Notes under the pieces: generated by a model | Databases searched by the model: none | The model's input: only the letters and a program-made list of their open reading frames with translations | What the model was told of the DNA's origin: nothing | Assembly (NCBI GenBank): GCA_041946805.1 | Contig: JBHGBC010000011.1 | Span: 4,151-68,150 of the forward strand | Origin: a bacterium | GTDB taxonomy: Bacteria; Hinthialibacterota; Hinthialibacteria; Hinthialibacterales; Hinthialibacteraceae | DNA length: 64,000 bases | Direction: 5' to 3' | In this document: positions 1,127 through 53,496 of the stretch, one piece after another | How the letters are laid out: every line of letters begins with the position of its first letter | Numbering within the stretch: position 1 is the stretch's first letter | Position numbers and translations under genes: made by a program

Positions 1127-4100
1127 TTACTGGTGCAAAAGAAAATCGGTTATGTCAGCAGTATGGCTTGAAAGACGGGCGTCGCCGGTCACATCGCCGT
1201 GATTCTGGTTGATGGAATAATCACGCACGTCGTTGCCGCCCGCGCTTCCGGTTCCCAAATCTTCCAATTGATCGAAGCGCCAGTAGCCGATCAAGCCGCT
1301 GCCGGGTGCGGTATATAGGCTGGGATCCAGGGGGGAATACATCGTTTCGCGTATCTGTTCCGCCGTGCGGGCGATGTTCCAAATGCGTAATTCATCGATG
1401 GACCCGACAAAGGGATACGTTGGGCTTGGCAAGAAGGCTTGGGCGGCCACGAGAAAAACTTCTTGATTCACCGGATTGAAACCGACGGGATCGCAGGCCC
1501 AGACTTGCTGAAACAAATTTCCGTTGATGTATATATTCATGAAATAGGCATTCCTGTCGTAGGTAAGGGCTAGATGGACCCATTTGCCGGCCTCGGCATT
1601 GAAACAGGTATTGATGTATCCCTCTTGGAAGCTGGTATTGAGCTTCCAGCGAAGGGTCCCGTCGGGAAACCGGAGAAATTGGTATTCATCGTTTTTATTA
1701 AAAATGACTCCCGCTTGCTCCCGATTGGGATCCTGGATTTCAGGCTTGATCCAGACTTCCAGAGTGACGGTTTCATAAACGTTCAAGGCGTCCGTTGGAC
1801 CCATGTTGATGTAACCCGTTTCCCCTTGCGGGGTAAGATTGAATTCGAGGGACTGGCCTGGCAATTTGAATCCTTCGTTCCGATGGAATTCCCGGTTGTA
1901 AATCAGCGGGGTGTACCCCGGCGAGATCCCGCTATATCCTTTTCTCTCCCTGAACTCGGTGGCGATGGCGGCGCATTCGATATTCATGACCTGCCGGGAT
2001 TCATCCACCAACATCACGCAGTTCAGGCCATCCGCGTTGTCAACCAATTGGGTGTACGGGCCGAGCGAAAAGGGCGTGCCGGTTAAGTTGATATTAGCCC
2101 GCGCGTTGATCTGGTTGGCCGATTGCAAATCATAGTGAATACTGCCAAAGAAGACCGGTTTCGATTTGATGTCGATCGTCATTTCGCCCAACGATTGACT
2201 TCTCGAGAATGTGCTGTCGGAACAATCCAAAATGAGGCTTTCCGGATCGAGGCGGACCTTGTTGAAAAACACTCTATCATAAACCCTGTCCTCCCGGTAT
2301 TCGATGAAATTGGATGTACCATTTCCTTCCGAAAGCGTCAAGTATTCCCGGGGGGGATCCAGGGAGGCTCCGGTTAAAGGATCATAAAACAGGCAATACA
2401 ACTTGATTGGCTTTTCGGGATTCCTTTGCGAGAAGATGAAAAATTCACCCCCCGGATTCGGCAGGAAGGTCGAATAGTGTTTTACATCGGCGGCGTTTTT
2501 ATAGAAAACCGGTTTGATGATTTTGGCGGTGGTGATATCGCCGCGCGCGTTCTCGGCCAGCACAACCCCGTCGGGATGCGCGGGTGATTCAAACGGAATG
2601 CTGTTGGTATAGAGCGATGTATTATCGGCTTTGAGTTCCACTTCACGGAATTGACCATCAATGGTGACTTGAGCGCGAACGCGTAGAATGGGGAAATTCC
2701 GGGGGAATGCGCTGACGTAAATTTTTTTGAAGTCCGGGTCAAAGATGGCGAGATCGATGTTCGCCTGCGGCTGGGCGCCCGGACTCATCAGAACCAGCTG
2801 CGTGTTGCGGATCATGGGAAGATTCAGCAGGCTCCGGGGCTGGCCTTGACGATTCCATTCTTCGATTAGCTTCTCCGCGGGTGTTGAAACATACCAATTG
2901 TCTGGATATTGGCGTCCTGCGATGTAGGTTTCTCCATTGATCTCTTCCAGGTCTAAAACGGTGGAGAGCACATCCTGGAACGTAAAACCCAGGTTATAAA
3001 AATCCGTGCCCACATAGACTTGGTATTGGCGGATATCGTTGTCACCGAGATTGACTTTGAGGGTGACCACGACCGGATCGATTTCGCCTTCGAAACTCGA
3101 CCATTCTTCCCGGGAATCAAAACTTTGTGTACTCGAATTCCAACGCGCCACGTCGGCACGCACCTGCGTTACCACCAAATCCAAAGGGGCGCCCGATTGA
3201 ATCGCCTTGAGTTCCTCCAACGATACAATGATGTCATTATTCTGATCATCTTTTTCGATCGCAAGGGTGCCGGTTTCCGGGTAGCGGTTATGAGGCAAGC
3301 CTTGTGGCGCCAACCGCTCAGCTATCTGAGAAGGAGTGATGGTGGCGATGGTTTTCTCCCCCAGCACCAGATTGAACGTCGGTTGGACGTCCAACGCGGT
3401 GGCGCTTCCCAAATTCTGCATATACACCCGCAGGCGCAACCGCGCCGTTGCGCTCGTATTGGTGGAGCGCGCGTTGCTCCAGTTCGATCCCAAAATGCTG
3501 GTGGTGCTTTCCTTCCGTGACCAGGTATGCGAATAGGAAGCCGTCACACTGGCGGACGCCAGCTTGAAAGGATTGAGCGAAGCTTCGACCGTGACTTCAC
3601 CGCCCACTTCATGGATGCTGCTCGTTTCATTGGTGAACGAGGCACTCTCTTCACCGCCGTCCGTGTTGGTGATCTCGCTGATGGGAATTACATCATAATC
3701 GGTCATTGCGATATGGATGACCGGCCGCGCCGCGACGAGAGGATGATTCTCGGGAGATGGAACTCCGGCCGGCATATTTACACCGGTTACTTCCATGTAA
3801 TCGCTATACGGATCGCCGTCGGAGCTCCACCGCAAAGGATCGGTTTTGAAATACCGCTCATGGGGATCGCCATCCCAGGGTTGCAAACCTTGACTGGGCG
3901 AATAGGTAAAACCATCCGCTTCCAGCGAATTCAGAATGCCGTCTTCGTCGTCATCGGCATTCGCCTGCAAGGGTACAATCCGCCCTTCCGCCGATATCAA
4001 TTCTATCACACCGCCCTCGGACGAATATTCAGTACGGAGGTAGTGGGAAAAAGTTCTGTGGATTGGAAGGAGGAGAATGATTATCATTTGAATGAAAATA

Positions 4101-4129
4101 CAAAACGAAGTTTTATGAGATCGTAGCAT
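1127..4129 (-). CDS. Secreted binary-toxin-B (protective-antigen-like) pore-forming protein with GON-like and LamG domains
   Basis: ATG at 4129 follows RBS GAAGGAG; hydrophobic N-terminus. DDDEDGILNSLE..., TDPLRWSSDGDPYSDYMEVTG, HPLVAARP and NLGSATALDVQPTFNLVLGEKTIATI match PA/Iota-b domains 1'-2. LYC..PREYLTL..NF..FNKVRLD..D.TFS..INLTGTPF is GON-like. TLEVWIKP..WVHLALTYD..IYING..GSIDELRIWN..GYWRFD is LamG. Confidence 0.8.
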   Translation of the reverse strand: MLRSHKTSFCIFIQMIIILLLPIHRTFSHYLRTEYSSEGGVIELISAEGRIVPLQANADDDEDGILNSLEADGFTYSPSQGLQPWDGDPHERYFKTDPLRWSSDGDPYSDYMEVTGVNMPAGVPSPENHPLVAARPVIHIAMTDYDVIPISEITNTDGGEESASFTNETSSIHEVGGEVTVEASLNPFKLASASVTASYSHTWSRKESTTSILGSNWSNARSTNTSATARLRLRVYMQNLGSATALDVQPTFNLVLGEKTIATITPSQIAERLAPQGLPHNRYPETGTLAIEKDDQNNDIIVSLEELKAIQSGAPLDLVVTQVRADVARWNSSTQSFDSREEWSSFEGEIDPVVVTLKVNLGDNDIRQYQVYVGTDFYNLGFTFQDVLSTVLDLEEINGETYIAGRQYPDNWYVSTPAEKLIEEWNRQGQPRSLLNLPMIRNTQLVLMSPGAQPQANIDLAIFDPDFKKIYVSAFPRNFPILRVRAQVTIDGQFREVELKADNTSLYTNSIPFESPAHPDGVVLAENARGDITTAKIIKPVFYKNAADVKHYSTFLPNPGGEFFIFSQRNPEKPIKLYCLFYDPLTGASLDPPREYLTLSEGNGTSNFIEYREDRVYDRVFFNKVRLDPESLILDCSDSTFSRSQSLGEMTIDIKSKPVFFGSIHYDLQSANQINARANINLTGTPFSLGPYTQLVDNADGLNCVMLVDESRQVMNIECAAIATEFRERKGYSGISPGYTPLIYNREFHRNEGFKLPGQSLEFNLTPQGETGYINMGPTDALNVYETVTLEVWIKPEIQDPNREQAGVIFNKNDEYQFLRFPDGTLRWKLNTSFQEGYINTCFNAEAGKWVHLALTYDRNAYFMNIYINGNLFQQVWACDPVGFNPVNQEVFLVAAQAFLPSPTYPFVGSIDELRIWNIARTAEQIRETMYSPLDPSLYTAPGSGLIGYWRFDQLEDLGTGSAGGNDVRDYSINQNHGDVTGDARLSSHTADITDFLLHQ

Positions 4130-4164
4130 GATTGGCACTCCTTCATTCCACATCAATCTATTGA

Positions 4165-4213
4165 ATTATCGCGCATTCATTTAACTCATGTCAAGACATA
4201 TTTTGAAAATATG
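4165..4213 (-). promoter_or_regulatory. Putative sigma70 promoter of the PA-like gene with adjacent palindromic operator
   Basis: Minus strand TTGACA (4194-4189)-N18-GATAAT (4170-4165). Palindrome CATATTTT-G-AAAATATG at 4197-4213 lies just upstream of the -35. Confidence 0.55.
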
Positions 4214-52231: not shown

Positions 52232-52237
52232 GAGAAG

Positions 52238-52340
52238 AGGGGATCGGTTTTTGTCTGAATCCAGATGGTCAGGATGAACAGGATGAACAGGATGAACAAG
52301 ATAATGATGGGTTACGCGGTGTCGCGCCAACCCATCCTAC
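52238..52340 (-). repeat. GTAG REP plus 9-nt array (CAGGATGAA)n
   Basis: Inverted copy of 40329-40420. Confidence 0.8.
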
Positions 52341-52605
52341 AACTACTAATCACTGCCTCGGATAGAAATCGCGCATATCCTCCCCACGAAGACATGGTTC
52401 AAGGCCATCGGCCCTTGTTTGACTATTAGGGACGCCTTGGCGGACATCCGGATCGGATTTCGGTCTTTTCCCCTTGCGAATCGGGATCCGCAGGTTGGAT
52501 AAATCAATAATAGGATAGATTGATCCATTCAATTTCCATATAATGGGATTCATTCAAAACGGGACCGTCCGGTTCCCGCATTTTCGTCATGGGGAGGTTA
52601 TTGCG

Positions 52606-53496
52606 ATGATTTCAAGCTGGAAGGAAGCGGTTTTGGTGGCGGTTGGCCTGATGTGGTTGGGCGTTTCCGCCGAGGCGGGCAAAGTGGAATGGGACTTCTC
52701 CGCCGCGACTTTGACCAATGGCGGACCTCCGGTGATACCCAGCACCTGTACACTGGGTGGAACGGTGGAGGATTGGACGTTCGACGGGAATCCGCTCAAC
52801 TACGACCCCAGCGTCTCCGGGGCGGCGGATCTCAGCCAGGGCTATCTGCATTTTCTGGATGACGCCACGATTAGTGGAAACGTGAGTTTGCTCACCTCGG
52901 ACCATTTCGAGACACGCAACCTGTACGCCCTGTCCGGGCCGGGCGACCAGCTGTGGCTGGTGTGCGATCACCAGATGATCAAGTACGGCCATCGCGCCAA
53001 CCTGCAGCCGGGCACGGTGGACGCAACCCGCGGCCAGATCTTTTGGGTTTCGTTTTTGACGTCTAACGGGACCGGGCTGGGGATCCAATACGTGGCGGGG
53101 AATTACAATACCGAGGACTATATGTTCTTTACCGCCATCGGCAACAGCGATGAAACCCAGGATGTGTACCAAAACGAAAACCGGCTGATCGAAGAAACTG
53201 GGGATCAACCCAATCTCGACCGCCGGACCGTGTATATCCGCGTCACCGAAAATGATGACAGCGCGACCGTCACGGTGGACGTGAAGTACGACAAGGGAAC
53301 CTACCGGACGATCGACGCCGCCTACGCCGGGGCGATCACCGATTACCCGGCGGGTAACGAGGCGGGCTGCGAGAATTACCTGGCGGTCATCGGGAACAAC
53401 TCGGGCAGCGGCGCGATCGAGTTTAACCTGTACAAACTGACCATCTCCGACGTGGATCCGGAGGGGACCCCGGTGGCGGAGTGGTCCTTGTATTGA
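52606..53496 (+). CDS. Secreted acidic beta-sandwich protein with C-terminal V-A-E-W motif
   Basis: ATG after GGGGAGG; signal peptide ending AEA. Ends SDVDPEGTPVAEWSLY. Confidence 0.75.
   Translation: MISSWKEAVLVAVGLMWLGVSAEAGKVEWDFSAATLTNGGPPVIPSTCTLGGTVEDWTFDGNPLNYDPSVSGAADLSQGYLHFLDDATISGNVSLLTSDHFETRNLYALSGPGDQLWLVCDHQMIKYGHRANLQPGTVDATRGQIFWVSFLTSNGTGLGIQYVAGNYNTEDYMFFTAIGNSDETQDVYQNENRLIEETGDQPNLDRRTVYIRVTENDDSATVTVDVKYDKGTYRTIDAAYAGAITDYPAGNEAGCENYLAVIGNNSGSGAIEFNLYKLTISDVDPEGTPVAEWSLY

Follow-up and report, generated by a model that had tools for sequence, protein, structure and literature searches.

A shared C-terminal tail on exported proteins of the window

The window analysed here is the whole 64,000-nt stretch G000:C13:4151-68150, where G000 is a Hinthialibacterota genome of 6.7 Mb in 315 contigs (58% G+C, 96.8% complete). 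Three exported proteins encoded in it end in variants of one short peptide, which is built around a tryptophan and is followed almost directly by the stop codon (Table 1). This peptide, called the tail or tag below, is the subject of the present report. A first-pass annotation of the window had listed four such tails and had taken the end of an esterase for a decayed fifth copy. The translations of all five open reading frames (ORFs) agree with that account, and the four tails lie at the coordinates it gave, but membership proves narrower: by the genome-wide profile described below, three of the proteins are members, the fourth (P0001) bears a weak variant, and the esterase, with a score of -9.1, is not a member, so that its reading as a decayed copy finds no support. 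Four close homologues of P0001 (70-78% identity, 999-1000 aa) have the same weak tail with scores of 0.2-7.3; given these values and its own score of -0.9, the P0001 tail is a weak F-for-W variant at best.

Table 1. Tail-bearing genes and other features of the window (window coordinates; scores are those of the tail profile)
Feature	Position	Strand	Remarks
Tagged exported protein, best-scoring tag of the window	52606-53496	+	Score 27.8; signal-peptide-like N-terminus
Its tag codons, T-P-V-A-E-W-S-L-Y	53467-53493	+	Stop codon 53494-53496 directly after; strict DNA pattern match at 53473-53496 (G000:C13:57623-57646)
Tagged exported lectin-like jelly-roll protein (P0003)	44183-44971	+	Score 21.4
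Its tag codons, A-P-V-G-D-W-Q-V-Y-Q	44939-44968	+	One extra residue past the aromatic
Tagged exported right-handed beta-helix protein (P0002)	12018-13388	-	Beta_helix PF13229, E = 3e-18; score 13.6
Its tag codons, G-V-E-D-W-G-V-L-Q-P (variant)	12021-12050	-	L at the aromatic position; two extra residues
Exported binary-toxin-B/PA-like and LamG protein (P0001)	1127-4129	-	PF03495, PF17475, PF13385; tail score -0.9
Its tail, T-A-D-I-T-D-F-L-L-H-Q (doubtful member)	1130-1162	-	F for W; T-to-I spacing one residue longer than the consensus
Esterase or S9-like hydrolase, not a tag member	15534-16661	-	Score -9.1
GspG-like pseudopilin gene	45060-45722	-	N_methyl PF07963, E = 2e-7; weak T2SSG match
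Second GspG-like pseudopilin gene of the window	27258-27884	+	N_methyl, E = 3e-9; T2SSG, E = 2e-4

Searches of Pfam and NCBIfam assigned no family to the best-scoring tagged protein or to P0003, and a homologue search with P0002 gave five matches only. P0001 contains calcium-binding and domain-2 regions like those of anthrax protective antigen (PA) and binary toxin B, followed by LamG, and belongs to a family that is widespread in Calditrichia, KSB1 and other groups. One of the two pseudopilin genes of the window is convergent with the P0003 gene and lies 88 nt from its end; the other adjoins a tagged gene on neither side. Elsewhere in the window, an SNF2-family helicase is encoded at 49091-52231 on the plus strand; its best NCBIfam matches are to SCO1167/SCO6262-type and pilus-regulating Snf2 models, all under cut-off.

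The tail is a genome-wide C-terminal motif

Counts over the whole genome were made on 4347 genes from a crude codon log-odds caller, using a tail profile that was anchored on the W, iterated on C-termini and applied at a threshold of 12 bits. The resulting consensus is T-[P/A/G]-V-x-[D/E]-W-x-[L/V/I]-[Y/F/H]-stop. With the W as position 0, the 122 copies in the profile have T at -5 in 70 cases, P, A or G at -4, V (105) or I (14) at -3, D (56) or E (24) at -1, W (113) or F (7) at 0, L (79), V (16) or I (11) at +2, and Y (60), F (23), H (17) or Q (12) at +3. The motif is followed directly by the stop codon in 99 of these copies and by one, two or three further residues in 20, 1 and 2 copies, respectively. 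A short linker rich in P, G, A and T usually precedes it.

At more than 12 bits the profile matches 123 of the 4347 C-termini, about 3% of the proteome, versus 18 of 1,598,780 internal positions, and at more than 20 bits it matches 81 C-termini versus a single internal position. Because the profile was trained on the same C-termini that it counts, the independent measure of enrichment is the regular expression proposed by the first-pass annotation, which matches within the last 12 residues of 42 of the 4347 proteins versus 0.21 expected from internal 12-residue windows (6 of 121,814). The pattern first seen on a few proteins of the window is therefore enriched at C-termini genome-wide, which confirms the first-pass observation and makes it stronger than the window alone could. 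The 18 internal matches look scattered and chance-like. Among 20,066 ORFs of at least 80 aa outside the gene set, seven have the tail, all of them 194-681 aa long, and these are probably genes missed by the caller. One of the internal matches lies close to a stop codon: a 1234-aa exported protein (G000:C254:20137-23842) carries a good tail motif 17 residues upstream of its stop, as if a former stop had been lost.

The copies of the tail differ at synonymous sites and make use of all three stop codons, and therefore selection acts at the protein level.

Tagged proteins look Sec-exported and are otherwise unrelated

A signal-peptide-like N-terminus is found in 111 of the 123 tagged proteins versus 1547 of the 4198 untagged ones (Fisher p = 4e-34). 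The signal-peptide test is crude and over-calls, with a high false-positive rate, as the figure for untagged proteins shows, but the association that the first-pass annotation had drawn between the tail and signal peptides holds at the scale of the genome. A contig end truncates half of the 12 tagged proteins that fail the test, and most of the remaining six have a hydrophobic N-terminus that lacks K or R. A transmembrane-like segment after the signal peptide is present in 2 of the 123, in keeping with the earlier remark that the tail comes with no transmembrane helix, and 7 of the 123 contain a lipobox-like string. Taken together, these counts identify the tail as a real, protein-level C-terminal signal tied to Sec export.

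The carriers are unrelated in sequence, as had been proposed from the few examples in the window: the 123 proteins fall into 63 BLAST clusters, 51 of which are singletons, and the tail is placed behind LamG, CBM9-like and other jelly-roll domains. When 40 cluster representatives were compared with Pfam and NCBIfam, matches were found to CBM9 (3), LamG (2), FG-GAP (2) and beta-helix (2) models, with single matches to an S15 peptidase, a beta-lactamase fold, CotH, LTD, NHL, LRR, SGBP-B and an OmcA/MtrC decahaem cytochrome. The most frequent model was thus found in three proteins at most, and the most frequent NCBIfam model in two at most. By analogy with these families, the cargo is mostly of surface or extracellular type. 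A separate search with the final 60 residues of 10 such proteins, at E values up to 10, gave no match to a sorting-signal model, although the HMMER filters may drop very weak matches. Both results agree with the first-pass view that the tail is unlike the known sorting signals.

The tail is conserved but predicted to be disordered

In related genomes, orthologues of 40-80% identity keep the tail. In the P0003 family, 22 of 24 aligned members retain it, down to 38% identity; the ending of this family, G-P-x-x-V-x-[D/E/N/H]-W-x-[L/V/M]-[Y/H/F], comes directly past the last strand. An AlphaFold (AF2) model of P0003 (mean predicted local distance difference test score, pLDDT, 87.8; predicted template modelling score 0.81) is a lectin-like jelly roll, for which Foldseek finds concanavalin A (ConA)-like and legume lectins as well as calreticulin (E about 1e-7, template modelling score about 0.5). 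In this model the last strand spans residues 250-260, and the tail, residues 264-271, has a pLDDT below 50. Conserved and yet disordered in the model, the tail has the look of a peptide ligand.

Distribution across genomes

For comparison across genomes we used a strict DNA pattern, V-x-D/E-W-x-L-Y-stop, with the reversed pattern as control. It gives 18 matches in G000 (control 0) and is found in 34 of the 35 genomes of the same phylum (Hinthialibacterota/OLB16), with 0-2 control matches per genome; the sole genome lacking a match, G001, is 84% complete. Matches also occur in three genomes titled Sumerlaeota (G035, G036 and G037, with 5, 10 and 14; control 0) and in a UBP4 genome (G038, with 5; control 0). 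Over the Sumerlaeota phylum as a whole, 42 of 75 genomes have matches, and the listing falls into runs of 0 and runs of 2-17.

A stricter pattern, run on 185,579 genomes that each represent one species, found 61 loci, 40 of them with an ORF of at least 80 aa that ends in the tail. The genomes with several matches are titled Candidatus Hinthialibacteria OLB16, 'Omnitrophota', 'bacterium', Sumerlaeota or UBP4, and the single matches in unrelated taxa come to about the number expected by chance. OLB16 belongs to the same 35-genome phylum as the window, and one homologue of P0003 is named Candidatus Hinthialibacter sp. The tail is thus present in at least three phylum-level groups (Hinthialibacterota, Sumerlaeota and UBP4), so that 'lineage-specific', the term used in the first-pass annotation, is too narrow. 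A perfect tail also ends a 427-aa ORF on a 27-kb contig whose record bears the title Neisseria gonorrhoeae DSM 9188 (L029:3658-3687); as a single case, it could be chance or a foreign contig.

What relatives carry in place of the tail

In place of the tail, relatives in other phyla bear different modules for sorting or anchoring, namely a type IX secretion system (T9SS) domain or a lipobox-like or dockerin-like N-terminus. For residues 500-1009 of P0001, about 30 full-length orthologues (32-45% identity, 1070-1120 aa) bear the T9SS domain PF18962, often together with PF13860. They are named Calditrichia, KSB1 or 'bacterium', several of them as T9SS type A sorting domain proteins, and PF18962 occupies in them the site of the short tail in this lineage. 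A search for PF18962 in G000, G008, G036, G037, G040 and G041 gave no match, versus 91-141 in three Bacteroidota controls, and across the window's own phylum 5 of 34 genomes have 1-4 matches. The T9SS component SprA (PF14349) was likewise searched for in G000, G008 and G036 with no match, versus two in each of the Bacteroidota genomes G112 and G114.

An OmcA/MtrC decahaem cytochrome on contig C242 (TIGR03507, 469 bits against a cut-off of 209) bears the tag, with a score of 26.5. The 299-aa multihaem protein beside it is untagged, a 604-aa multihaem protein has a tail under the threshold, and a 492-aa ORF that matches no family has the barrel-like end V-G-V-N-F. The last haem domain forms the end of 148 of the best 150 MtrC-family representatives, and the other two have a tag-like tail; in 40 whose N-termini were viewed by eye, several lipobox-like, dockerin-like or collagen-like segments were seen. 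The Shewanella lipoproteins MtrC and OmcA are located on the outside of the outer membrane, and type II secretion (by the T2SS) has been implicated in their translocation (PMC1974784).

The surroundings of the tagged cytochrome (G000:C242:328-8361) resemble a porin-cytochrome cluster, comprising two multihaem proteins with MtrC/MtrF domains (one of them a full member of the OmcA/MtrC family), a 4-haem protein, the 299-aa multihaem protein and the 492-aa ORF. Its gene content suggests a capacity for extracellular electron transfer in this phylum.

A 295-kb sample from the tag-poor Sumerlaeota genomes G040 and G041 contains no ORF above 12 bits, and the best tails reach 8.3 and 4.9. Five exported ORFs in this sample end in a single dockerin-like repeat, versus 1 of 4347 proteins in G000, and Dockerin_1 matches number 21 in G040 and 19 in G041 versus 10 in G036, 8 in G000 and 1 in G037. 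The sample and these five genomes suggested that dockerin might be a general substitute for the tail in tag-poor relatives. Over 75 Sumerlaeota genomes, however, the counts of tag and Dockerin_1 are not anticorrelated (Spearman rho = -0.09, p = 0.44), and the idea was dropped, even though 7 of the 8 tag-richest genomes have 0-1 Dockerin_1 matches; these count statistics are descriptive only, since related genomes are not independent. At the G040 and G041 loci, two further exported proteins share another conserved ending, and pseudopilin genes adjoin there too.

Pseudopilins and secretins around tagged genes

G000 encodes 105 GspG-like pseudopilins, each about 190 aa long and with a prepilin N-terminus; none has the tag. 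These paralogues have a near-identical N-terminus and a conserved C-terminal loop, and 23 of the 105 adjoin another pseudopilin gene. A pseudopilin gene is the immediate neighbour of 22 of the 123 tagged genes, on the same strand in 19 of the 22 cases and at roughly four times the chance rate, compared with 5.1 +/- 2.2 for random genes (maximum 15 in 300 draws) and 5.7 +/- 2.2 for untagged genes with a signal-peptide-like N-terminus. Within three genes, a pseudopilin is found for 39 of the 123 tagged genes versus 13.5 +/- 3.4 expected, and, counted in reverse, 21 of the 105 pseudopilins have a tagged neighbour versus 4.8 expected. In other genomes, 15 of 40 tag-bearing loci hold a pseudopilin-like ORF, a figure that has no matched control. 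Pseudopilin expansion is also seen where the strict tag pattern has no match, with 37 matches to the pseudopilin pattern in G040, 45 in G041 and 124 in G107.

At G000:C25:380-1635, the gene of a tagged thioredoxin-like protein (P0011), which has a W-C-x-x-C site, and a pseudopilin gene (P0012) overlap, the stop of the first with the start of the second. The predicted complex of the two proteins scores 0.79 (best of three controls, 0.01), a mark reached by 51 of 78 solved complexes and by 2 of 108 mismatched pairs. The contacts recur in at least 73% of runs, with a partner pLDDT of 67 or more. This result may partly reflect likeness to thioredoxin-substrate complexes that have already been solved. 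The predicted interface sets the W-C-x-x-C site against Cys71 and Cys116 of the pseudopilin; it names no tail residues and so gives no verdict on contact between tail and pseudopilin. The model supports binding of this pair and suggests that at least one tagged protein works on a pseudopilin, with the active site of P0011 placed as if the protein were a dedicated disulfide oxidoreductase.

Eight secretin (PF00263) matches were found in G000, on contigs C298, C246, C268, C16, C223, C17 and C35. From gene sizes and transmembrane-segment counts, some of the secretin clusters would be Tad-like and others type IV pilus-like. A gene-neighbourhood search for a receptor gave only two strongly recurrent families: the GspG-like pseudopilins, and proteins of some 470 aa that match nothing in Pfam. 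The latter have 12 copies, 7 of which are near tags, and take part in a recurrent three-gene module together with a pseudopilin gene and a gene for a tagged protein, seen at C277:1330-2718, on C306, C146 and C269 and elsewhere. As a receptor candidate the ~470-aa family was dropped; judged by sequence alone, it may be a sugar-metabolism enzyme. None of the roughly 12 PDZ proteins of G000 is consistently near tagged genes or secretins.

Discussion

The tail has the appearance of an address label, so far undescribed, for the surface or the outside of the cell. Our literature search found no paper that describes it, with the supplements of two phylum papers, which may hold secretome tables, lying outside that search; in the main texts of the paper describing Hinthialibacter and of the main Sumerlaeota paper, the term 'C-terminal' does not occur.

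Among the known systems, the type A sorting domain of the T9SS (PF18962/TIGR04183) is a close parallel. It too is C-terminal, sits on Sec-exported soluble cargo of many folds with no transmembrane helix, has about 100 clients per genome (91-141 in the three Bacteroidota versus about 123-130 tags) and occupies the same position in the P0001 family. The T9SS signal, however, is a folded domain of about 75 model positions, whereas the tag comprises about 9-10 residues with a pLDDT below 50 and occurs in a lineage that has no SprA and essentially no PF18962; nor is PF18962 among the 25 most frequent of the 38 Pfam families matched by 40 tagged proteins. With the LPXTG/sortase, PEP-CTERM/exosortase and GlyGly-CTERM/rhombosortase systems, the tail shares a short C-terminal motif on many signal-peptide-bearing clients and a restriction to certain lineages. 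Such tripartite sorting signals have a transmembrane helix and a basic cluster downstream of the motif, whereas tagged proteins end 0-3 residues past it and rarely contain a second hydrophobic segment (2 of 123).

The outer-membrane beta-signal read by the beta-barrel assembly machinery also ends in an aromatic residue whose carboxylate is free, with hydrophobic residues before it, but in the tail the hydrophobic residues (V, W, L and Y at positions -6, -3, -1 and 0, counted from the end) show no alternation, and the carriers are soluble lectin-like, beta-helix, cytochrome and hydrolase domains rather than barrels. Dockerin-cohesin modules are likewise C-terminal additions to secreted enzymes of many families. 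Dockerin_1 (PF00404), however, is a calcium-binding module of 57 positions, while the tail has neither a Pfam match nor a repeat, and Dockerin_1 is also outside the 25 most frequent of those 38 Pfam families. Substrates with the C-terminal signal of the type I secretion system lack a Sec signal peptide, unlike the 111 of 123 tagged proteins that have a signal-peptide-like N-terminus. As for the T2SS, it too takes folded, Sec-exported cargo, GspG-like genes adjoin tagged genes, and OmcA/MtrC are tied to it in Shewanella (PMC1974784); on the other side, the pseudopilin expansion is also present where the tag is not.

In the account that we propose as the most likely, with a probability of roughly 0.45, the tail would serve as a short linear tag for sorting that is recognized in the periplasm, after Sec export, and is linked to a T2SS-like route. 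Cargo would cross the inner membrane via Sec and then fold in the periplasm, where a dedicated receptor would bind the exposed, disordered tail through its hydrophobic and aromatic residues and its free C-terminus. The receptor would then pass the folded cargo to an outer-membrane export route, most likely a T2SS-like pseudopilin/secretin system, and the cargo would end on the cell surface or outside the cell. The receptor, the route, any cleavage of the tail and the final site of the cargo are all things that we infer.

Several observations weigh against this proposal. We know of no linear export signal for any T2SS. No tagged gene was found within seven genes of any of the seven secretin genes inspected, and gene neighbourhood revealed no receptor or machine. 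Matches to the pseudopilin pattern number 10-124 per genome in 74 of the 75 genomes of Sumerlaeota, among them tag-poor ones, and therefore the expansion does not track the tag and was discarded as a marker of it. The T2SS connection that the first-pass annotation drew from the expanded pseudopilins has some support in gene adjacency (22 of 123 tagged genes versus 5.1 +/- 2.2), with the distribution of the expansion counting against it. The cysteine chemistry predicted between P0011 and its pseudopilin would take place in the periplasm, which fits a periplasmic role at least as well as export. The one family in which a T9SS domain is replaced, that of P0001, has the weakest variant of the tail (-0.9). 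In addition, the arguments for the localisation of tagged proteins all rest on analogy, the gene caller and the signal-peptide test are both crude, and tag-negative genomes were scored by the strict pattern only, so that diverged variants may be present in them.

The tail could also act after export rather than during it. Export would then ignore the tail, which outside the cell would bind a surface receptor or glycan non-covalently, much as a dockerin or WxL-type module does; we regard this as unlikely, though it is the alternative that we take most seriously. A short, disordered, conserved, aromatic and hydrophobic peptide with a fixed free end is typical of a peptide ligand, and other members of the MtrC family appear, by eye, to bear anchors in the form of lipobox-like N-termini or N-terminal dockerin-like segments. 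The dockerin-like ends in the tag-poor Sumerlaeota sample and the near absence of Dockerin_1 from most of the tag-richest genomes point the same way. Against this, the anticorrelation is missing over the 75 genomes, both modules occur together in G000 and in G036, the search turned up no repeated receptor or scaffold, and docking would leave the pseudopilin neighbourhood unexplained. If instead the tail were a substrate motif, a periplasmic or outer-membrane peptidase or transpeptidase would cut in or before it and thereby mature the cargo or link it covalently to the envelope, as PorU does for the T9SS and sortases for LPXTG proteins. In the tail, T, V, D/E and W hardly vary and keep a strict distance to the end, as would suit an enzyme recognition site, and the tail occupies the position of the cleaved T9SS domain in orthologues. 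We nevertheless consider such processing improbable: the proteins have no transmembrane helix by which a membrane enzyme could keep hold of them, no enzyme emerged as a candidate, and the lineage lacks SprA and essentially lacks T9SS sorting domains.

PDZ domains classically bind C-terminal aromatic peptides. The tail might be a periplasmic ligand, recognized by a protease of the PDZ type, by a chaperone or by an assembly factor, and serve retention, quality control or recruitment to the assembly site of the pseudopilus, and not export at all. The dozen or so PDZ proteins of G000 and the predicted P0011-pseudopilin complex (0.79 versus 0.01 for the control) would be in line with this, but most of the cargo is of extracellular type (lectin-like, CBM9, beta-helix, OmcA/MtrC), no PDZ gene recurs near tagged genes or secretins, and about 130 clients would be many for a quality-control signal, which makes a purely periplasmic role quite improbable in our view. 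That the tail has no function of its own, being the product of chance, of annotation or of a 3' DNA cassette spread by recombination, is a very remote prospect that the counts reported here already contradict. Nothing speaks for it other than the training of the profile on the C-termini that it counts; the regular expression, fixed beforehand, still found 42 matches where 0.21 were expected, synonymous sites and stop codons differ among copies, the tail is kept down to 38% identity and across phyla, reversed-pattern controls are about 0, and only 7 of 20,066 ORFs outside the gene set have it.

The sorting-tag proposal has a wider form, which we hold to be possible but doubtful. Hinthialibacterota, part of Sumerlaeota and UBP4 would have in common an undescribed sorting system, in which a nine-residue, disordered tag with a free end serves more than 100 folded, Sec-exported clients per cell and is read by a receptor belonging to a T2SS-like pseudopilin/secretin machine. 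It would be the first linear export signal for such a machine and, where the T9SS is lacking, would take over the function of its sorting domain.

Whole secretomes are defined by C-terminal sorting signals, and these have repeatedly opened the way to new machines, including sortases, exosortases and the T9SS. The present tag stands out very clearly in the statistics. Its architecture, which comprises neither a transmembrane helix nor a folded domain and is found in at least three little-known phyla, differs from that of the described signals. It provides a simple sequence rule by which to predict the enzymes, lectins and cytochromes that these uncultivated polymer degraders probably place outside the cell, and a short peptide with a free end is also a handle for fishing out its receptor. 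Should that receptor belong to a T2SS-like system, the tail would bear on the old question of how the T2SS recognizes its cargo.

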